A stretch of 64,000 bases of DNA, from positions 13,131 through 77,130 of the forward strand of contig CBFIGQ010000047.1 of NCBI GenBank assembly GCA_965662335.1, read 5' to 3'. Under the pieces are notes generated by a model. It saw only the letters and a list, made by a program, of their open reading frames with translations. It did not search any database and was not told where the DNA came from. Below, piece by piece: positions 6,976 through 63,807 of the stretch (the stretch's first letter is position 1; every line of letters starts with the position of its first letter). A program made the position numbers and the translations under genes. Source of the DNA: Minisyncoccia bacterium. GTDB taxonomy: Bacteria > Patescibacteriota > Minisyncoccia > Phycocordibacterales > UBA9973.

Positions 6976-8976
6976 ATGTTAAAAAATTCCTTTTTGAAGC
7001 GGACGGTCTTGATCACTGTGTTAGTGATACCGATAGTATGTTTCAAAGCGCTCGTCTTCCCTCATGTAACGAGTAAGGCGTATCTGTTTTATGGGCTCGT
7101 AGAAATCATCACAGCAGTATGGGTGTATGTCGTGTTGGTTGATCCGACTTGCCGGATAAGCCGAAGAGCGTTACTTTGGCTTATTCCATTTGGAGCATAT
7201 ATGGTGTGGCTTACTATTGCGGGCATGCTTTCTTTTAATCCACATCTTTCTGTATGGTCATCTCTCATGCGAGGAACGGGTCTTTTGACACTGTGGCATG
7301 GTTTTCTATTTATTCTCGTCCTTATGTCGCTTGTACAAAAATATGGAAAAGTATTTATATATACGGTGATGCAGTACACAGTCGCTGCGGGTGCCGTAGT
7401 GGGTGCGAGTATCTGGTTTGGAGATGAAGGACTTCGAGTACCTATTTCAGTACTACAAAAGGGAAGCGGGGGAGGGGTCGTAGGTAACTCATCACTTGCA
7501 GCAGCGTATCTGCTCTTTGTTGTTGCGTTTGCGTTGATACTTGTGTGTGCAAAAGAACTCAAACAAAAATGGTGGATATATCTATCACTTTTCATCATTA
7601 TTGGATCTCCGATTTTTATAAACATCATCGGACTGTGTAGGGGGATAGGGCTACTTGGAAGTGCTCGAGCTGCAACTGCTGCTATAGGGATAGGTGCAGT
7701 AGTGTCGGCGCTTGTACTACTCGTACTTTCACCTTCAAAAACTCGCAAAGTAATAGGTTGGTCAGGTATTGCTGCCGGTGTTGTTGTGTTTGTAGTGGTA
7801 TGGAGCCAGCTCATGACCTCAGGCACTGCAATTCATACCAAATTTATTTCTGAAACTTCTGATGCTCGGTTTATATTTTGGAATATTGCTCAAAATGCAA
7901 TGGATGAGCGACCACTACTTGGATACGGGCCAGAAAATTTCTCTATAGCAGTGCAGCGTCATTTTGATCCACAGCTCCTGTCAAAGGATTCTGGATTTGA
8001 GGTATGGAGCGATCGAGCTCATAACATATACTACGATACCGGTGTCTCGGGAGGGTATCCGGCAATTGTGTTATATGCACTCCTGATTGCAAGTATGATA
8101 GCTGCAGCATACAAAGCGTATACCAAAGGATTTTATACACGAACAGAAGTTGCGGTTTTTACGGGGCTTGTTGTTGCCTATGTCGTGCAAAACCTTACGG
8201 TATTTGATGGATTTATGTCACTCTTTGTGCTCTATATAACACTTGCAGTACTCTACGGAGCATTTAGAACTACGGACACTTCAACATATATAGTAAGTGA
8301 TAGGTATAAACCTTTACTTCCTGTTTTTCTAGTTGCGGCACTAGTCGGAGCTTGGTATTTGAGCATTAGACCGATAGAAAAGGCGCATGCCTTTGGAGAT
8401 GTGCTCGGCGATGCAGTCAACAAAAGACCAGACAGATATAAGTCACTTTTGAACGGCGCGTCTGTTGGTAATGACTGGGATGTAAGCGGATTTGCCCATG
8501 ATGAATACAAACTCTATGCCAGAGATCCCCTTGCAGTAAAAAGCGATCAGAGGCTGCTCCCGTATGGCAAGAAAGATATTGATGCATTTATCGCCTATAT
8601 AGAAACCATAGCTAACACCAACAAGACGGACTATCGTCTCTACCTCAGTATTGTGCACTTGTATAGCACAAAGATATATCTCGGAGATATGCCGTATGAT
8701 AATGCACTTGCAGAAAAGATACAGAGCTATATCGATACTGGGCGCATGCTCGCGCCGCGCGATCCACAGCTCTACTGGGCAGATGCACAGCTAGCTGCTT
8801 GGAAAGGAGATATACAGGGTGTAGTTACTGCGTACCAAAAAGGTATTGAGCTAGATCCGACACTTGCACCGTCACATAGACTATTGGTTGGTTTTTTGAA
8901 GGATACCGGTAACCAAAAACTATATGAACAAGCGCTCAAGCAGGCTCGGCAGGACATACCTGGATTTACCTTATAA
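6976..8976 (+). CDS. O-antigen ligase/polymerase-like membrane protein (Wzy_C family) with C-terminal soluble TPR-like domain
   Basis: About 12 predicted TM helices; Wzy_C-like motif RAHNIYYDTGVSGGYPAIVLY; start moved to MLKNSFLKR downstream of terminator. Confidence 0.6.
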   Translation: MLKNSFLKRTVLITVLVIPIVCFKALVFPHVTSKAYLFYGLVEIITAVWVYVVLVDPTCRISRRALLWLIPFGAYMVWLTIAGMLSFNPHLSVWSSLMRGTGLLTLWHGFLFILVLMSLVQKYGKVFIYTVMQYTVAAGAVVGASIWFGDEGLRVPISVLQKGSGGGVVGNSSLAAAYLLFVVAFALILVCAKELKQKWWIYLSLFIIIGSPIFINIIGLCRGIGLLGSARAATAAIGIGAVVSALVLLVLSPSKTRKVIGWSGIAAGVVVFVVVWSQLMTSGTAIHTKFISETSDARFIFWNIAQNAMDERPLLGYGPENFSIAVQRHFDPQLLSKDSGFEVWSDRAHNIYYDTGVSGGYPAIVLYALLIASMIAAAYKAYTKGFYTRTEVAVFTGLVVAYVVQNLTVFDGFMSLFVLYITLAVLYGAFRTTDTSTYIVSDRYKPLLPVFLVAALVGAWYLSIRPIEKAHAFGDVLGDAVNKRPDRYKSLLNGASVGNDWDVSGFAHDEYKLYARDPLAVKSDQRLLPYGKKDIDAFIAYIETIANTNKTDYRLYLSIVHLYSTKIYLGDMPYDNALAEKIQSYIDTGRMLAPRDPQLYWADAQLAAWKGDIQGVVTAYQKGIELDPTLAPSHRLLVGFLKDTGNQKLYEQALKQARQDIPGFTL

Positions 8977-22160: not shown

Positions 22161-22840
22161 TCCTGTCCCTCTGGTTATCTTCAAATAACTGCAGGAGAGG
22201 AGACAGTAGTACTGGATCAGCTCGAGCGGTCGAGCGAAGTCTGGTACGAACCCGCCTGATTCTCGGAGAGAGCTCTGGCGGGCATGATTTCTAGATTTCC
22301 TAATAGGAAATCAAGAGCATATGGTGGATGCCTAGGTTCTACATGGCGATGAAAGACGCGGGAGGCGGCGATACGCTTCGGGGAGGTGCCTACAAACCTT
22401 TGATCCGGAGATTTCTGAATGGGGAAACCCAATAGAGTAAACCTCTATTATCCCGACACATAAGTGGTCGGGGAGCGCACCCAGGGAAGTGAAACATCTC
22501 AGTACCTGGAGGAAAAGAAAAAAATGTTATGTATATAACGACATTCCCTAAGTAGCGGCGAGCGAAAAGGGACAAGCCCAAACCGGTGCATCATGGAGAC
22601 AATAAATTTATTTGTTGTCTCCATGATGCACCGGGGTTGTAAGGCAAAAGCGTCAATTTATTGAGAAGAGTTACAAAATGTATGTATAGAAGAAGTTGTT
22701 GGAAACCAACGCCATAGTGGGTGATAGCCCCGTAGTCGAAATGCATATATCTCTTTTGCTTTTGTTCTTGAGTACTTCCGGACACGAATAGCCGGGAGGA
22801 ATCCGCCAGAACTAACTGGTAAGGCTAAATACATTGTAGA

Positions 22841-22883
<43 letters not shown>

Positions 22884-24371
22884 TCCGAAAGGAGGGTGAA
22901 ATAGTACTGAAACCATATGCTTACAAGGAGTCGGAGCGGGTATTTATATCCGTCACGGCGTGCCTATTGAAGAATGAGCCAACGAGTTAATCTGTGCGGC
23001 TTGGCTAAGGTGTAAAGCACCGGAGCCGTAGGGAAACCAAGTGTGAATAGCGCGCAATTGGTCGTACAGATTAGACCCGAAGCCAGGTGAGCTATCCATG
23101 AGCAGGGTGAAGTTTGTCGAAAGACAGATGGAGGCCCGAACCGGTAAATCGTACAACGTTTTCGGATGACTTGTGGATTGGAGTGAAAAGCTAATCGAAC
23201 CTGGTAATAGCTGGTTCTCTCCGAAATAGCTTTAGGGTTAGCGTCACGTGTTCCCTTTGGGGGTAGAGCACTGGAAAGTTTCGACAGGGAGCAATCTCGC
23301 GACACTTATCAAACTCCGAATACCAAAGGTTAAGAACGTGGCAGTTAGTCTACGGGGGCTAAGCTCCGTCAGACAAAAGGGAAACAGCCCAGATCTCTAA
23401 ATAAGGTCCCTAAATCTGCACTCAGTACATCATAAGGATGTGAGATTTCTCTGACAATGAGGAAGTTGGCTTAGAAGCAGCCATCTTTTAAAGAAAGCGT
23501 AACAGCTCACTCATCGAGAGATCTTGCGCCGCAGATAATCGGGGTTAAGTGCAGTACCGAATTTGAGGGCTTGTAGATTTCATAAAGGAAAGAAAATTTT
23601 GGCGTGAGAAAGATTGGATACCAGATTGGCTCCACTTCTTTCTCTGCCAATCTAATTCCTTTTTTTATGAAATCTATAAGCGGTAGGAGAGTATTCCACT
23701 CTTGCTGTGAAGGCAAAGGCGTGAGCCATGCTGGAGCGTGTGGAAGTAAGAATGTTGGCACAAGTAACCGCAAGTCGGGTGAGAAACCCGGCCGCCGAAA
23801 GACTAAGGTTTCCTGGGTAACGGTTATCGTCCCAGGGTTAGTCGGGGCCTAAGGTGATGGCGAGAGCCGCAACCGATGGACAGTGGGTTAATATTCCCAC
23901 ACTTCTATTGTATTCGATGGAGGGACGAAGGGTAGTAACATATGCCTCTTATTGGATTGAGGTAGACATAGAGCGCAGGTAGGATAGGTAAATCCGTCTT
24001 ACAATACTGTCAACTATGGCTCGTGCGAAGCTACGGCTTAGCGAAGATATGTGAGCACGCTTCCGAGAAAAGCTTCTAAGATTAGTACAGTAGAACCCGT
24101 ACCGTAAACCGACACAGGTAGTCAGGTCGAGTAGACCAAGGCGAACGAGTGAGGGATCCCCAAGGAACTCGGCAAAAAAGCAGCCGTAACTTCGGGATAA
24201 GGCTTGCCGGCAGCAATGTCGGCCGCAGCGAAAGTATTCCTGGCAACTGTTTATCAAAAACACAGCTCCCTGCGAACTCGTAAGAGGATGTATAGGGGGT
24301 GACACCTGACCAATGCCAGAAGGTTAACCAACGGTGGTGCGATTATATCAAGCTGGCTGTTGTAAGCCCTG

Positions 24372-24406
<35 letters not shown>

Positions 24407-24615
24407 TTTGCATTTCAACCTCGTTGGAATGCAAAACGGACTAGGACTGTCTATAGAAAACGATAAACAATTTAAAAGAATAATCATTACATTTCAAGCT
24501 ACCTTTCATAGCGTAATCTATGAATAGTCCATTGTGATTAACGAGAGACCAACGTCACAGTTCCGACCCTTGTAAAAGGAGGAATAAGAGAGAGTCCAAC
24601 TGAGAGGAATAGTTG
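24407..24615 (+). other. About 209-nt ORF-less insertion in 23S between CCTAAGGT and AGCGAAATTCC (E. coli ~1917 region); group I intron-like
   Basis: Flanking exon sequence is contiguous in other 23S rRNAs; upstream exon ends in T and insert ends in G, as for group I introns; no ORF. Confidence 0.5.
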
Positions 24616-25274
24616 AGCGAAATTCCTTGTCGGGTAAGTTCCGACGCGCACGAATGGTGTAATGACTGGGAAACTGTCTCGGGGATTTGCTCGGTGAAAA
24701 TACAGTACCGGTGAAGATGCCGGTTACCTGCAGTTAGACGAAAAGACCCTAGAAGCTTTACTACAACTTGGTATTGGGCATGTTCTAGTACTACGTAGCA
24801 TAGGAAGGAGACTTTGAAGCGCCGCTTTCGGGCCGCGTGGAGTCGTCAGTGAAATACTTCTTTGTACGTGGGCATGTCCTAACCAGCGCGGCAAAAACGA
24901 GCTGGAACAGTGCCTGGTGGGTAGTTTTACTGGGGCGGTATCCTCCCAAAAAGTAACGGAGGAGTTCAAAGGTAGGCTAGGCGCGAATGGAAACCGTGCC
25001 GATAGTGCAATGGCATAAGCCTGCTTGACTGTAAGGGGGACATCCCGAGCAGGTGCGAAAGCAGAACATAGTGAACCGACAATTCGCATTAGATGCGGTT
25101 GAAGATTAACGGATAGAAGCTACTCTAGGGATAACAGGCTAGTTCCGCCTAAGCGTCCATAGCGACGGCGGAGTTCGGCACCTCGATGTCGGCTCACCTT
25201 ATCCTGGGGCTGGAGAAGGTCCCAAAGGTTTGGCTGTTCGCCAATTAAAAAGGTACGCGAGCTGGGTTCAGACC

Positions 25275-25715
25275 GTGAGGAAGTGAAAAGTACTACCATG
25301 AAGTGTACGGAACGAAGGGATACGACTCTTGTTTGCGTGATACTCATGAGTTCAAGTCTCTTTTGACTGACTCACCGTCTGAATCCTTGAGGAAATTTTT
25401 TGAAATGTTTTTTATAAAAACATTCACATATAAAATATGTTTTAGTCTTTTCGTCTAATAAGGTTAAAGCTCGTGTTCTCTTCTGCAAAGAGTACATGAG
25501 AGAAAGATAGTAATAAAAGAAACCAATCAGTTACGGCGGCTTCATATGGAGACATATGAAGTATGCTCAACTAATATCGGTGAAGGCCTTATGGGTTAAC
25601 ACCGAGGGAACCGTAAGGGCCCGTAGAGACTACAACTACGTTGAGGCACTCATGAAGTGCAAGATATAGTCCATTCCATACAGTAATGTGTGAATAAGAA
25701 GCGTAAGACAGGTTG
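25275..25715 (+). other. About 440-nt ORF-less insertion in 23S between GGGTTcAGAcC and CGTaAGACAGgTtGG (E. coli ~2585-2593 region); group I intron-like
   Basis: Conserved flanks interrupted at a classical rRNA intron site; exact boundaries ambiguous by a few nt; no ORF above 60 aa. Confidence 0.5.
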
Positions 25716-26042
25716 GTCTCCTATCTACTGCAGGCGTTGATACTTGAAGAAATTCGCTCCTAGTACGAGAGGACCGGAGTGAACGAACCTCTGGTGTACG
25801 GGCTCTAGTGCCAACTGGACCGCCCGGTAGCTATGTTCGGAATGGATAACCTCTGAAAGCATCTAAGAGGGAAGCCAGTTCTAAGATGAGGTATCGTCAA
25901 GGGCCGTAAGAGATGATTACGTTGATAGGCACCAAGTGTACGCGTAGTAATGCGCTCAGCTGAGGTGTACTAATTGCCCGACTCCTATTAGGAAATCTGG
26001 AAATCATAAATAAGAAAAGAAAAAATAATTCGAGCGCACTGT

Positions 26043-26151
<109 letters not shown>

Positions 26152-26187
26152 GTGCGCTTGAATACATTTTCAAAAAACATCAAACGA

Positions 26188-26210
26188 TCACCCGAGAGGG
26201 TGGTTTTTTG
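26188..26210 (+). terminator. Intrinsic terminator after 5S
   Basis: caccc-gaga-gggtgg followed by T6. Confidence 0.85.
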
Positions 26211-26244
26211 CTTAGGTTGACCACGCGCATTAAAGGAGATACTA

Positions 26245-26444
26245 TGATTATTTTACTATCAGGAGATGGAGATTATAAATTACTGGTTGATTTTCTAATT
26301 GAGGAAAATAAGTTTGAGAAAATACTGTTTCCTGATAGAAGTAGGGCGTCTTCGCTGTACAAGAAAATAGGCGCAACGTATTTTGATGCCCTAGATGGGA
26401 CTGATGTGCGGAATAAAATTGAGCAAAAGAAAAAGCCTCCTTAG
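26245..26444 (+). pseudogene. NYN-domain (LabA/DUF88-like) nuclease gene remnant, C-terminal half only
   Basis: MIILLSGDGDYKLLVDFLIEENKFEKILFP... matches the C-terminal NYN segment (hhhhSxDsD motif) of the full NYN gene at 62242-62865; the upstream reading frame runs through the 5S/terminator so the N-terminal half is missing. Confidence 0.45.
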
Positions 26445-26552
26445 GTAGCTAGCCGTTCGGAACCTCTTTCGTCGCAATGAGTACATGTTAGCAAATTGAT
26501 GTAAAAAGTTAAGTCGTTGACACGAAGTGTCGGGGGGGGGTACTATTTTGGT

Positions 26553-27020
26553 ATGAAATATATTATATGGGGATTAATCGCAATTGTTATTTTGTGTGGA
26601 GCGGTATTGATACGCAACTATCATCCTGATGGCACTGTACAGACCGCTGCAGCAACTCCTTTGACTAACAAAAGATTTACTCAAGGCACGACGGTCGTAC
26701 CAGTAGTGTCAAATGATACCCTTGCCCTAGATGCATTCATTGCTCAAATTCCAACTATCACTACCAAACTCCAATCAATTTCAAAAGACCCAGCATCTTT
26801 CAAGGCAAATCTTCAAAAGGCTCAAGAAGCAGGAAGAGCTCCCTACATCAATATTGCAGCACTGTATGGCTATTGGGCTATCGTCGGTACGTTTACAACA
26901 TCTGGGGGCGAGACTTGTGGAAATGTCATGGTACCTGCGAATAATCAAATAGTGACCGAGGCTGGTCCGGGAACATGCCTCGTTTGGGGGTGGGTTTTGT
27001 ACCCATGGTGGCTGCCATAA
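26553..27020 (+). CDS. Secreted/membrane-anchored hypothetical protein
   Basis: Start at MKYIIWGLIAIVILCGAVLI (signal anchor); shares a short KDP(S/A)AF block with the 21390 protein; G9 homopolymer just upstream of this start. Confidence 0.4.
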   Translation: MKYIIWGLIAIVILCGAVLIRNYHPDGTVQTAAATPLTNKRFTQGTTVVPVVSNDTLALDAFIAQIPTITTKLQSISKDPASFKANLQKAQEAGRAPYINIAALYGYWAIVGTFTTSGGETCGNVMVPANNQIVTEAGPGTCLVWGWVLYPWWLP

Positions 27021-50732: not shown

Positions 50733-50811
50733 CACCGCCCCGTAGATAATACTTGACTTTTCCATATATTTGGTGTATAATATAGCCAAGTAAACATTAT
50801 AAATTATATAT

Positions 50812-51255
50812 ATGAAAAAGTTCTTTGTAATTGCATGTATTGTTTGCATTTCGATAGCGAAAGCTTCTGCACAAACATATGTCATTGACCCCAAATGGGC
50901 TGAGGCAATATTTCCTGAATACACAGGAGAATGGGTTGCCCAGCATACCGATGTGCAAGTGGTAGATGAGGAATTTCAGAAAAAATTCAAAAAACAATTG
51001 AAATCTGAATATTTCTTCTACAACACAAACTCCATGGGTAAAATCAGGCTTGGCGATACAGTGTTTATATTTCAAAACACTATTTACTACTCCATGCATG
51101 ACCAGTCATACGTAGATACAAAAAAGGCGTATGAAGAAAATTTGAGAAAAGCAAATGTGGTCAGAAAGCCCAAAGGCCATAAGGCAGGAGGAGCACTCCT
51201 CGCAATCGGTACCGGTCTTGTGCTCGGAGCAGTTGTCGGTATGTCGCAGCGATGA
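50812..51255 (+). CDS. Secreted hypothetical protein with C-terminal TM anchor
   Basis: Signal peptide MKKFFVIACIVCISIAKASA; C-terminal hydrophobic helix. Confidence 0.45.
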   Translation: MKKFFVIACIVCISIAKASAQTYVIDPKWAEAIFPEYTGEWVAQHTDVQVVDEEFQKKFKKQLKSEYFFYNTNSMGKIRLGDTVFIFQNTIYYSMHDQSYVDTKKAYEENLRKANVVRKPKGHKAGGALLAIGTGLVLGAVVGMSQR

Positions 51256-56087: not shown

Positions 56088-56269
56088 AGGGGTCGCTCTC
56101 CAAACTCTCTGGAAACTCTCCGGGGATTTGAGGGCATTCTTTAACAATTGCATACATGCATTAAAAGAATGCGAGTCAACACAATCTATTTATAGAAAAT
56201 GGATAACAATAATCCAGTGACAAGGGAATCATTTTTCTCTTGTCTCGATCTAAGTCACATTTGTGACTT

Positions 56270-57880
<1,611 letters not shown>

Positions 57881-59937: not shown

Positions 59938-61656
59938 ATGTATTGGCTAAACGAAAACAGTAGAAAATTCTTGGCAAAAGGCTATCTCATGAACGGACAG
60001 TCTGCCGAAGACCGTATCCGTGAGATTGCAACCATTGCAGAAAAGCATCTCGGAAAGCCTGGTTTTGCCGATAAGTTTTATGACTATATGTCTCGCGGCT
60101 TTTACTCACTTGCAACTCCTATCTGGGCCAACTATGGGCACACTCGGGGGCTTCCGATCAGTTGTTTCGGATCATACGTTGCAGATGACATGTCTCGTAT
60201 ACTGTACACGCATGCAGAAGTCGGCATGATGACCAAGTACGGAGGTGGTACTTCTGCGTACTTTGGAGACCTCAGACCACGCGGTGCTGAGATCAAGGGT
60301 AACGGACACTCGTCTGGGTCTGTGCACTTCATGGAGCTCTTTGATGGACTCATCAACATTGTCTCGCAGGGCACGGTGCGCCGTGGCCACTGCGCGCCCT
60401 ACCTACCTGTTGAACACGGAGACATTGATGAATTTTTAAATATTGGAAAAGAGGGACATCCGATCCAGGAGTCTACCTATGCGATCACAGTTGGAGACGA
60501 GTGGCTCAAGGCAATGGTTGGAGGCGACCAAGCAAAGCGCGCTATTTGGGCCAAGGTTATCCAGCGCCGCACTGAGATAGGCTACCCATACATTCTCTTT
60601 AGCGATACTGTTAATAACAATACCGTAGATGTCTACAAAGACAAGGGGGTGCGTATCTACGGCAGCAACCTCTGTTCTGAGATCTGTTTACCAACTGCGG
60701 ATGATATATCCTTTGTGTGCTGCCTTTCTTCAATAAACCTTCGCCACTACGAAGAATGGAAAGACACCGATGCAGTCGAAACACTCACCATGTTCCTCGA
60801 CACGGTGATCGGAGAATTCGTCGAACGCCTCGAAGCAATGCGAGACAGCAGCGACTCGCAAAAGCAATCTGCCTTTTACTTCATGCAACGCGCACACAAG
60901 TTCGCCAAAGAGCACCGCGCGCTTGGCCTCGGAGTGCTCGGGTGGCATACACTGCTTCAGGAGCGCAATATTCCATTCGAAAGCGCCGAAGCAGCCGCAC
61001 TTAACGAAGAGATCTTCAAGCTTCTCAAAGAAAAGGCATACGCAGCGTCTACGCAGATGGCCAAAGACTACGGAGAACCAGAAGTCCTCAAAGGCTACGG
61101 CCGCCGCAACACCACACTTCTTGCGGTTGCACCAACCACCTCAAGTGCATTTATTCTTGGGCAAGTTTCGCAAGGCATTGAGCCGCTTATGAGTAACGCC
61201 TTTGTGAAAGACGTCGACAAAATGAAAGTCACTATCAAAAATCCGACACTTGTTGCACTTCTTGAAGAAAAGGGAATGAATACTCCTGAGATCTGGAACA
61301 GTATTCGTGACAACGACGGTTCAGTGCAGCACCTCGACGGACTCACCGATCATGAAAAGAAAGTCTTCCGAACCTTTGCCGAGATAGATCAAAAGGCAAT
61401 CATTGACCAAGCTGCGACACGTCAGCAGTACATCGACCAAGCGCAGTCGCTCAACATCATGATCGATCCAAGTATTCCAGCGAAGGATCTCAACGCGCTC
61501 TATCTCTACGCATGGGAGAAAGGTATCAAGACCCTCTACTACCAGCACTCTATGAATGCAGCGCAGCAGTTTGGTCGCAAGAAGCTCCAAGAGCAAGATG
61601 CCAAGAAGCCCAAAGTCATGGTGATGGGGGAGGTGTGTGTAAACTGCGAGGCGTAA
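59938..61656 (+). CDS. nrdA: Ribonucleotide reductase large subunit (class I alpha) lacking ATP-cone
   Basis: Catalytic motifs PISCF, GGGTSAYFGDLRPRGAEIKG, NLCSEI, C-terminal CVNCEA redox cysteines; 572 aa. Confidence 0.85.
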   Translation: MYWLNENSRKFLAKGYLMNGQSAEDRIREIATIAEKHLGKPGFADKFYDYMSRGFYSLATPIWANYGHTRGLPISCFGSYVADDMSRILYTHAEVGMMTKYGGGTSAYFGDLRPRGAEIKGNGHSSGSVHFMELFDGLINIVSQGTVRRGHCAPYLPVEHGDIDEFLNIGKEGHPIQESTYAITVGDEWLKAMVGGDQAKRAIWAKVIQRRTEIGYPYILFSDTVNNNTVDVYKDKGVRIYGSNLCSEICLPTADDISFVCCLSSINLRHYEEWKDTDAVETLTMFLDTVIGEFVERLEAMRDSSDSQKQSAFYFMQRAHKFAKEHRALGLGVLGWHTLLQERNIPFESAEAAALNEEIFKLLKEKAYAASTQMAKDYGEPEVLKGYGRRNTTLLAVAPTTSSAFILGQVSQGIEPLMSNAFVKDVDKMKVTIKNPTLVALLEEKGMNTPEIWNSIRDNDGSVQHLDGLTDHEKKVFRTFAEIDQKAIIDQAATRQQYIDQAQSLNIMIDPSIPAKDLNALYLYAWEKGIKTLYYQHSMNAAQQFGRKKLQEQDAKKPKVMVMGEVCVNCEA

Positions 61657-62020: not shown

Positions 62021-62053
62021 TATTGTAATTTTCAGGAAAATTTGTATAGTGTC

Positions 62054-62109
62054 TTTGTTGTACCGAACGATCGCGCTTGGCTCGCAAGAGTCAGGTGAGG
62101 AAAGTCCGA
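62054..62109 (+). ncRNA. Truncated, diverged second copy of the RNase P RNA 5' end (P1-P4 5' strand only)
   Basis: tttgttgtaccgaacgatcgcg-[8-bp hairpin, gcaa loop]-tgaggaaagtccga aligns with the RNase P RNA start at 63481-63531 and shows compensatory changes in the P3 hairpin; no P4 3' strand (ACAGAAnnCGGCTTA) follows. Confidence 0.5.
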
Positions 62110-62241: not shown

Positions 62242-62865
62242 ATGAAAATGAACGTCTATATCGACAGTTTCAACCTTTATTATGGCTGCCTCAAAAAGAA
62301 TTCATCAGTGAAATGGCTTGATATCTCCAAGCTGTGTCAGTTTCTTTTCCCAAAGGATACTGTCCAAAAAATAAAATACTATACAGCTGCGGTTAAACTT
62401 CGCCCAAATGATCCTGATACCGATAAGCCCAATAGACAACAAATCCATTTCAGAGCACTCCGTACTTTACCAACATTGGAATTATTTTATGGAACATTCC
62501 TTTCCCATACTGTTTCTATGAAGCGGGCGGATGGAAAGGGGTATGCTGATGTGATCAAGACGGAAGAGAAAGGAACTGACGTGAGTATAGCGACTCATTT
62601 GGTACATGATGCTCACAATAAAGACTTCGAAATAGCTGTGGTGGTATCAAATGATTCCGATCTTGTCGAACCAATCAGGATTGTTACTCAAGAACTTAAA
62701 CTCCCGGTGATTGTGGTAAGTCCGTTTGAACGAAACTCGATAGAATTGAAAAAGATAGCAAGCTCGGTGCGCCATATTCGTAATGGTGTGCTTCGGGTCA
62801 GTCAGTTTCCATTTGAACTTGAAGATGAAGTGGGGAAGTTTACAAAACCAGATACTTGGAAATAA
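62242..62865 (+). CDS. NYN-domain nuclease (LabA/YacP-like, PF01936)
   Basis: N-terminal VYIDSFNLYY and central/C-terminal GTDVSIATHLVHDA...AVVVSNDSDLVEPI motifs of the NYN/PIN-like fold. Confidence 0.7.
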   Translation: MKMNVYIDSFNLYYGCLKKNSSVKWLDISKLCQFLFPKDTVQKIKYYTAAVKLRPNDPDTDKPNRQQIHFRALRTLPTLELFYGTFLSHTVSMKRADGKGYADVIKTEEKGTDVSIATHLVHDAHNKDFEIAVVVSNDSDLVEPIRIVTQELKLPVIVVSPFERNSIELKKIASSVRHIRNGVLRVSQFPFELEDEVGKFTKPDTWK

Positions 62866-62872
62866 ATCCATG

Positions 62873-62983
62873 CAACAATTCGGCCGCAAGAAGCTTCAAG
62901 AGCAGGATGCCAAGAAGCCAAAGGTGATGGTGATGGGAGAGGTGTGCGTGAACTGTGAAGCGTAATCGCAATCAATAAATAAG
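62873..62983 (+). repeat. Diverged duplicate of the nrdA 3' end (last ~31 codons plus about 17 nt downstream)
   Basis: About 85% nt identity to 61565-61698; encodes the identical peptide QQFGRKKLQEQDAKKPKVMVMGEVCVNCEA with synonymous differences only. Confidence 0.7.
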
Positions 62984-63477: not shown

Positions 63478-63480
63478 TCC

Positions 63481-63806
63481 TTTGTTGCACCGCACGATCG
63501 CGTCCGCCAGCTGGCGGATGAGGAAAGTCCGAACACACAACAGTTCATTCTGTACAGGTAGCGGGTAATGCCCGTCTGGCGCAAGCCAAGGACTGCGAAC
63601 AGTGACGAATCTTTGATGAGTAAGGGGTCTTGACCTGAGCTTGTCGAAGGGTGAAACGGCTAAATGTCTACCCGTGTGCAAGGCCGTGCCAGATATCCAC
63701 GTGGTCTCTGGAGTGCTGCTACAGGTGTTTGGTAACAAACATCGCAGATAAATGATCGAACTATCAATTGATAGCAACAGAATTCGGCTTACGAGTGCAA
63801 CATCAT
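63481..63806 (+). ncRNA. rnpB: RNase P RNA (bacterial type)
   Basis: P4 strands GAGGAAAGTCCGaAC and ACAGAAttCGGCTTAC, AAGGGTGAAAcGG motif, P1 pairing tgttgcac/gtgcaaca; about 325 nt. Confidence 0.8.
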
Positions 63807-63807
63807 G

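Follow-up and report, generated by a model that had tools for sequence, protein, structure and literature searches.

A truncated NYN nuclease gene beside a 5S rRNA gene and a conserved 3′ element with a predicted antisense small RNA in Patescibacteria

The rRNA locus and the truncated NYN gene

In the 64-kb stretch of DNA that was analysed (hereafter, the window), a 23S rRNA gene (22301-25992, plus strand; Rfam LSU_rRNA_bacteria, 2373 bits) is followed on the same strand by a 5S rRNA gene (26043-26149; Rfam 5S_rRNA, 73.5 bits). This unit is closed by an intrinsic terminator (26186-26210), found both by a terminator scan and in the sequence, where a T-run adjoins the 3′ side of a hairpin (26186-26205). 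Beyond a short junction (26211-26228), a 5′-truncated NYN coding relic occupies positions 26229-26444 of the plus strand, and a conserved non-coding element of ~98 nt (26421-26518) overlaps its end. The right edge of the relic is set by an unrelated gene (26517-27020, plus strand), which has its own promoter (TTGACA-18-TACTAT, 26517-26546) and an ATG at 26553. The 16S gene (56269-57880) is unlinked, lying 30 kb from the 23S gene, and the RNase P RNA is encoded at 63482-63807. The 23S gene, 3692 nt long with insertions, exceeds the bacterial model by about 770 nt. Inside it, a sub-threshold match to a group I intron was found (25515-25693; 32.3 bits, E 1.2e-5), at which no homing-endonuclease ORF was seen.

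The relic holds an open reading frame from an ATG at 26244 to the stop codon at 26444 (66 aa), the product of which begins MIILLSGDGDY (MIILLSGDGDYKLLVDFLIEENKFEKILFPDRSRASSLYKK) and corresponds to the C-terminal ~64 residues of an NYN protein of ~174 aa. A C-terminal NYN fragment behind the 5S gene had been noticed in a preliminary description of this DNA, with the correct stop codon and with a start at 26245 that has to be moved to 26244. Its homology was borne out: against a family HMM of 174 positions, built from 69 intact relatives, the relic scored 97.4 bits (E 4.9e-29) over positions 109-172, and by this C-terminal match it belongs to the NYN-sRNA module described below. With the Pfam NYN model (PF01936), by which the fragment was to be checked according to the preliminary description, the relic alone stayed below the gathering cut-off of 24.2 bits (14.2 bits, E 0.065, profile positions 97-135 of 145), whereas a representative full-length relative reached 58.2 bits (E 1.7e-15). 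On these scores the relic is homologous to the NYN family, yet it is no domain by itself. In particular, SGDGDY is the only acidic active-site motif left and three of four are gone, IDGQN and GNVDSD falling within the missing HMM positions 1-108. A database search with the relic protein returned 388 homologues, the best non-self match having an E-value of 2.4e-27.

The homology breakpoint was placed by DNA alignment with close relatives (L085, L083 and L001) at about position 26229, 19 nt beyond the T-run of the 5S terminator. The window sequence ATTAAAGGAGATACT-ATGATTATT, read as ATT AAA GGA GAT ACT ATG ATT ATT, aligns with the codons Y K G E D F D K I I of the relatives, and no similarity was found farther upstream. 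Because of this alignment, the apparent Shine-Dalgarno sequence AAAGGAG was read as the K-G-E codons of the relic and rejected as a true ribosome-binding motif, the 3′ tail of the 16S rRNA (57860-57880, GGATTAACTCA) being also without the canonical CCUCC anti-Shine-Dalgarno sequence. Given the breakpoint, an intact gene would extend, with its ~108 lost codons and its promoter, back across the terminator and the 5S gene into the 23S 3′ end; the overlap of the lost N-terminal half with the 5S gene and the terminator had been correctly anticipated. The stop-to-stop frame reaches back to 26010 without any NYN similarity in the added part, and no earlier start yields a complete NYN domain, which would have spoken against a truncated gene. 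Moreover, no N-terminal NYN piece was found by the family HMM in any frame of a six-frame translation of the 64-kb window, in which the only other match was a weak one (21.9 bits) to the NYN gene at 62242-62865. An insertion of the rRNA operon into an NYN gene was rejected, as no N-terminal piece lies upstream of the 23S gene or elsewhere in the window.

The junction between the 5S gene and the fragment was 100% identical in an independent Logan assembly (ERR15116721, L212), and the truncation is therefore no assembly artefact. The retained 63 codons score like those of intact genes (116.3 bits with the C-terminal HMM, against a median of 111.7), which fits a recent loss by deletion and not a slow point-mutational decay; all the family-invariant residues of the retained segment are kept and the frame is open. 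The deposited gene call at this place (protein P0001, 26112-26444) is 110 aa long and starts inside the 5S gene, an overlap that is an annotation artefact.

The NYN family and its conserved 3′ element

The relatives of the relic were collected by scanning one genome per species, which gave 80 loci (L001-L080) in Patescibacteria lineages including Wolfe-, Taylor-, Nomura-, Kaiser-, Falkow-, Magasanik-, Andersen-, Uhr- and Kuenenbacteria as well as Saccharimonadales. Intact proteins of 165-180 aa are encoded by 69 of these 80 loci, and it was from them that the family HMM was built. The full-length relatives carry the acidic motifs AFIDGQN, KKKGNVDSD and LVSGDGDY, and their closest solved structure is 2QIP (E 2.4e-6). 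As most genome loci are full length, the idea that the family is a natural mini-protein, which the uniformly short proteins in the list of 388 matches had raised, was discarded; the composition of that list probably reflects how the candidates were picked.

The distribution of the module is patchy, the flanks are unrelated between loci, and the genes downstream are not conserved from one locus to another. Protein identity ranges from 54 to 84% across classes, and at least one nearest neighbour belongs to a different class, a Falkowbacteria copy being nearest to a Wolfebacteria copy. The unrelated flanks and this cross-class neighbour suggest accessory or mobile behaviour, although neither flanking repeats nor conserved upstream DNA that would mark a transposon were found at the NYN-family loci. 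Upstream of the NYN genes no DNA is conserved except a −10 box, which in 40 of 77 loci has its end 5-9 nt ahead of the ATG, while a Shine-Dalgarno-like sequence occurs in only 3 of the 77. The proximity of the −10 box to the ATG and the scarcity of Shine-Dalgarno-like sequences suggest that the NYN-family mRNAs are leaderless, and the 16S tail described above fits the lack of such motifs ahead of these genes.

In tblastx comparisons, the similarity of the window locus to nearly all other loci does not end at the stop codon and continues beyond it in several reading frames. This similarity belongs to a conserved element that overlaps the 3′ end of the ORF and was missed in the preliminary description. 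A covariance model of the element (R1) finds just one full match in the window, overlapping the NYN stop codon on the plus strand (26421-26518; 80.5 bits, E 7.6e-16, model positions 1-99), by which the window copy is also a member of the NYN-sRNA module. In the 85 genome loci, every NYN gene has one copy of the R1 element behind it, with additional tandem copies in a few. Tandem duplications with a spacing of ~100-116 nt were seen in L052 (4283-4493), L049 (4283-4497), L025 (4260-4459), L124, L127, L183 and L186; two NYN modules are adjacent to each other in L186, and the elements number three in L183.

Read along the plus strand, the element consists of an A-run, the hairpin GAAAAGGGCUCC[UUAGGUAGUUAGCCGUUC]GGAUCCCUUUUC, the run GTCTTAATA, ATnATA, 16-17 nt and GTCAA. 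In the window, the hairpin spans 26429-26470 with arms at 26429-26440 and 26459-26470, overlapping the stop codon. RNAalifold applied to the raw MAFFT alignment gave only 6 pairs, owing to register shifts, and the structure was drawn by hand and the copies realigned by the covariance model R1. In the 91 copies realigned, 11 of 14 pairs showed compensatory changes and 90.7% of the cells were paired, a level of covariation that none of 500 shuffles reached. The hairpin is capped by a near-invariant apical loop of 22 nt (CCTTAGGYARTTARCCGTTYGG; 26439-26460), of which the window copy differs by 1 mismatch; the loop motif has a single match in the window, where 0 are expected. In the subclade formed by L062, L065 and L075, the big loop is replaced by a short one. 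Furthermore, among 154 junctions the NYN stop codon lies within the loop in any of three frames (50, 14 and 40 junctions) or before the hairpin (50), and the conservation is therefore at the nucleotide level and not at that of a peptide.

A known RNA family was rejected as the identity of the element, since no family of Rfam 15 matched it at the gathering score and a search of 26150-26600 in E-value mode gave only chance-level matches (E of 0.06 or more). Neither the element nor the module was found described in the literature on NYN proteins with antisense RNA, toxin-antitoxin systems or CPR, and the highly conserved element, with its predicted small antisense RNA gene, appears to be previously undescribed.

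The predicted antisense RNA gene, its orphan copies and the decay of its partner

From the geometry of promoter and terminator, an antisense small RNA of ~54 nt (about 55) is predicted on the minus strand at 26425-26478, laid out as a short 5′ tail, the hairpin and a U-run. Full complementarity is predicted to the final ~20 nt of the NYN reading frame and to the hairpin of the 3′ UTR. The consensus promoter of the family on the minus strand is TTGACA/T-N16-17-TATAAT with a leader of ~10 nt to the hairpin. Of 89 family copies, 79 fit the pattern TTGnnn-N16-19-TAnnnT, and conservation among the promoter columns is highest at TTG, TA and the final T. In the window, the promoter (26485-26512) has a −35 box TTAACT (26512-26507), a 16-nt spacer and a −10 box TAACAT (26490-26485), and with 8 of 12 matches to the consensus it falls below the scan threshold. 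The sole secondary R1 match in the window, a weak one, is a strong consensus promoter on the plus strand (TTGACT...TATAAT, 50747-50804) ahead of an ORF at 50812; as it is an ordinary promoter, it bears out the reading of the model's 3′ half.

The strand of the functional RNA is indicated by the mismatch pattern of helix 1, in which 53 alignment cells are A.C on the plus strand, equivalent to G.U on the minus strand, against 12 cells that are G.U on the plus strand. This bias holds at G-C pairs too, where coding constraint would push in the opposite way. On this asymmetry, of the two possible transcripts the one from the minus strand is the better candidate for a functional RNA. Moreover, the predicted folding energy of the window RNA is −15.7 kcal/mol for the minus strand and −10.7 for the plus strand. 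As in an intrinsic terminator, the minus-strand stem is followed by UUUUUCUUUU, while the U-run of the plus strand is weaker and interrupted; these terminator features are compatible with the sRNA model. For a candidate antisense RNA gene of the kind that overlaps the toxin mRNA in type I systems, the sequence signals of a promoter, a covarying hairpin and a U-run on the opposite strand are strong. In the window, the sRNA gene survives structurally, with a degraded −35 box (from TTGAC to TTAAC) and an extra mismatch in the stem, and it is probably decaying as well.

The loop is not confined to NYN genes. Exact matches to its 22 nt were found in at least 120 metagenome contigs and 4 viral contigs, and it is also borne by other stems, in every case together with a minus-strand promoter, and is found after unrelated genes (Imm5-like and HAD/UMPH-1). 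Orphan elements following a gene for an Imm5-like putative immunity protein (PF21805, E 3.4e-35) were seen in L134, L137, L140, L149, L187 and L204, most of the Imm5-like loci having a degenerate second loop copy just upstream. On the phage contig L089 (IMGVR_UViG_3300008255_000749), the loop lies at 8649-8725 on an unrelated stem, in an intergenic position without an NYN gene, with a minus-strand promoter (TTGTCA-16-TATACT) and a separate terminator farther on; the contig is genuinely of phage origin, encoding a portal protein, a large terminase and a DnaD-like loader (PHROGs). Because a near-invariant loop recurs on other stems and in other contexts, the data hint that it is recognized by a protein or acts in trans. 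An antisense RNA working only in cis does not explain the near-invariance of the loop or its presence without NYN on a phage. Pairing with or mimicry of rRNA or RNase P RNA by the loop was rejected, as the longest shared words were of 9-10 nt, and no complementarity beyond 9-10 nt was found between the element and the 16S, 23S, 5S and rnpB genes of the window. The likenesses that we presumed of GGCUAACUAC to helix 18 of 16S rRNA and of CUCCUUA to the 16S 3′ end were likewise dismissed, neither sequence existing in the rRNAs of this genome.

A sample independent of the protein was obtained by scanning metagenome contigs for the 22-nt loop (124 elements) and classifying the 780 nt upstream of each by the family HMM. 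The NYN gene was intact in 68 cases, disrupted in 9, N-terminally truncated in 9 and absent in 15, while 23 elements lay at a contig edge; the partner was thus broken, truncated or missing for about a third of the sampled elements. The N-truncated copies begin at HMM positions 78-141. Among the relatives with the top protein matches, all three loci inspected had damaged genes. The lesions recorded include a nonsense codon in L083, a deletion with a frameshift in L085 and truncations right after groEL in L081 and L082. Elements without an intact NYN gene had lower R1 scores (medians of 56.6-64.7 bits versus 71.3 bits with intact NYN; p 3.5e-5) and kept the promoter less often (17 of 23 versus 73 of 74 with NYN), the window element scoring 66.9 bits in this comparison. 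By these comparisons, the window copy is one of a recurring class of relics.

Interpretation and comparison with known systems

The segment 26229-26518 of the window is probably the right-hand relic of a compact NYN-sRNA module, the intact form of which is possibly type I-like. This reading is built on features seen in the compared loci themselves: the homology and the truncation of the relic, the covarying element with its promoter, which is strictly linked to the NYN gene, the frequent inactivation of that gene and its patchy occurrence in changing contexts. The intact module would comprise a gene for a ~170-aa NYN (PIN-like) nuclease, with an apparently leaderless mRNA, and a convergent sRNA gene of ~55 nt on the opposite strand, with a sigma-70 promoter, the hairpin and a U-run. 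In the window, a deletion with one end 19 nt past the 5S terminator would have taken the NYN promoter and about 108 codons, the adjacency to the 5S gene being an accident of the deletion endpoint and the relic what remained after loss of the nuclease gene. With three of the four acidic motifs gone, the 66-aa ORF would therefore be a non-functional pseudogene fragment.

In the intact module, pairing of the sRNA with the 3′-terminal part of the NYN mRNA would lower NYN expression. That it represses the nuclease by such antisense pairing, in the way of the 3′-overlapping type I pairs, is offered tentatively, on analogy, as a proposal to which we give somewhat less than an even chance; with about 60% identity across classes, the NYN protein is unusually well conserved for a toxin. 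A more elaborate scheme, which we consider rather unlikely, would be a new kind of RNA-antitoxin system, with a PIN-like RNase held in check by the ~55-nt RNA, the invariant loop being read by the nuclease or making a kissing contact with the mRNA, stand-alone loop copies in Patescibacteria phages acting against it as antitoxin mimics and the relic being an orphan antitoxin.

A different view of the short ORF is that it encodes a functional mini-protein, for instance a regulator or dominant-negative partner of an intact NYN protein elsewhere. Its open frame, its full set of family-invariant residues and its score as high as that of intact genes agree with this, as do a promoter-like sequence at 26217-26245 (TTGACC-17-TACTAT) and the many C-terminal forms of 60-116 aa in databases, and AAAGGAG-N7-ATG ahead of the retained codons makes expression possible. 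However, the short forms begin at differing points and arise from nonsense codons, frameshifts and deletions ending at HMM positions 78 to 141, and therefore represent no conserved short isoform. Furthermore, AAAGGAG consists of relic K-G-E codons and is unlikely to be a ribosome-binding site with a 16S tail devoid of CCUCC, the candidate −10 box overlaps the ATG, and three of four catalytic motifs are missing, all of which makes a mini-protein very improbable. The 3′ element, in turn, could be used as a plain bidirectional terminator, as its hairpin has A- and U-runs on both sides. It might then be no more than such an intrinsic terminator joined to a promoter of nothing particular, with no functional sRNA, a view in keeping with a stem between an A-run and a T-run, with a predicted RNA barely longer than a terminator hairpin and with the exchange of the big loop for a short one in the subclade of L062, L065 and L075. 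Terminators, however, do not hold a 22-nt loop near-invariant across bacterial classes, the key −35 and −10 positions (TTG, TA...T) are the most conserved columns, and a promoter firing straight into a terminator would have no other obvious use. As the same loop also has its own minus-strand promoter elsewhere, including on phage, we regard the terminator-only view as improbable.

The preliminary description had connected the relic with stable RNAs, proposing either repeated insertion and decay of NYN elements next to such loci or a functional link of NYN nucleases to rRNA and RNase P processing, and this was suggested by two cases, at 5S and rnpB, in one 64-kb window. The second NYN gene (62242-62865, plus strand) is intact and of another family (Pfam NYN, E 5.2e-11), matching the PADLOC candidate defence gene HEC-09 over its full length (E 6.6e-44), whereas HEC-09 matches the family of the relic over 47 residues only (17.8 bits, E 4.8e-4), placing the latter outside that group. 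The C-terminal resemblance that had been seen between the fragment and this protein is real as regards the generic NYN fold, with 23% identity over 52 aa (BLASTP, E 0.023) and 21.9 bits with the family HMM against 97.4 bits for the relic. By these comparisons the two share only that fold and are not two copies of one element, and no R1 element follows the gene at 62242-62865. Its position near rnpB has a local explanation. The last 94 nt of the gene for the RNR large subunit (61563-61656) are repeated 1309 nt downstream (62872-62965; 85% DNA identity, identical protein sequence), the two repeats bracketing a 106-aa ORF and the HEC-09-like NYN gene, and the order RNR-ORF106-NYN recurs in the related Logan assemblies L210 and L211. 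On account of this duplication and conserved order, the proximity to rnpB looks like a by-product of an insertion at the nrd 3′ end. Between ORF106 and NYN there is, in addition, a 23-nt repeat of the RNase P RNA 5′ end (62053-62075 versus 63480-63502; 21 of 23 identical), and the interleaved repeats suggest an insertion or duplication at the nrd-rnpB junction.

Beyond the window, rRNA genes were found nearby in only 2 of 85 genome loci, an intact member lying 140 nt after a 5S gene in L039 and another 460 nt before a 16S gene in L078, and tRNA genes within 400 nt in 9 of 85. In the metagenome sample, no rRNA gene lay within ~1 kb of any of the 124 elements and a tRNA gene did so in 8; over the 209 loci of both samples, tRNA genes are thereby close in 6-10%. 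The survey of relatives that had been suggested thus shows adjacency to 5S or other rRNA genes to be rare. An ancestral 5S-NYN arrangement shared with L039 was rejected, since the DNA that separates the 5S gene from NYN in L039 shows no homology to its counterpart in the window. Although the L039, L078 and tRNA cases fit a homing of NYN elements to stable-RNA genes, or an action of NYN nucleases with rRNA or RNase P RNA, both ideas are very unlikely indeed: the two NYN genes of the window are of different families, the independent sample has no rRNA neighbour and only 8 tRNA neighbours among 124 elements, the L039 and window spacers are unrelated, the gene at 62242 is bracketed by the duplicated RNR 3′ end and not by rnpB sequence alone, and complementarity of the element to rRNA or rnpB does not exceed 9-10 nt. 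Neither repeated insertion beside stable-RNA loci nor a link to their processing is supported.

As for its significance, the relic itself is an ordinary pseudogene, the position of which after the 5S gene says nothing on rRNA processing. It exposed an annotation error, in that the deposited 110-aa CDS starts inside the 5S gene, and it led to a compact module widespread in Patescibacteria that consists of a nuclease gene and a predicted antisense sRNA. To our knowledge, Patescibacteria, which are ultra-small and for the most part uncultured, have so far yielded very few regulatory RNAs or toxin-antitoxin-like systems. From its sequence features, the module seems to represent a variant, not described so far, of nuclease systems under antisense-RNA control.

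Several known systems resemble parts of this module. Among proteins, the PF01936 NYN and LabA-like (DUF88) group, with 2QIP (VPA0982), has the motifs IDGxN, DxD and SGDGD that are also present in the full-length relatives, while the relic keeps the last motif only and lies below the Pfam threshold; a LabA-type function in cyanobacterial clock output is not implied for the family. The HEC-09 candidate, as noted above, corresponds to the gene at 62242-62865, a subfamily other than that of the relic. The eukaryotic RNase Regnase-1/MCPIP1, which is of the NYN/PIN-like type, cuts a stem-loop within the 3′ UTR of its own mRNA and shares with the module the combination of an NYN-type RNase gene and a conserved 3′-UTR stem-loop. 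A Regnase-like self-regulation of NYN through its own 3′ hairpin is conceivable by analogy. However, Regnase-1 is eukaryotic and has no antisense promoter, whereas the strand asymmetry and the promoter of the NYN module favour an RNA from the opposite strand.

Classical type I toxins are small hydrophobic peptides, which the ~170-aa soluble NYN protein is not. SymE/SymR and RalR/RalA are type I systems with nuclease toxins and are alike in having a nuclease-type protein under a cis-encoded antisense RNA, the latter being a prediction for the NYN module. They differ in their unrelated folds (AbrB-like and a small DNase) and in being enterobacterial, and SymR overlaps the 5′ end of symE. A similar arrangement is that of type I pairs with 3′-overlapping convergent RNAs, such as txpA/RatA and bsrG/SR4 of Bacillus subtilis (PMC6563280, PMC8594479). 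As in those pairs, the protein gene and the predicted sRNA gene are convergent and overlap at their 3′ ends, the sRNA gene has its own predicted promoter and terminator, the distribution is patchy with a variable context, and the protein genes are often degenerate. In contrast, the toxins of txpA/RatA and bsrG/SR4 are hydrophobic peptides of <60 aa instead of a ~170-aa soluble NYN nuclease, and the NYN module is distinguished from such pairs by an overlap of only ~50 nt and by a loop conserved far beyond what antisense pairing needs.
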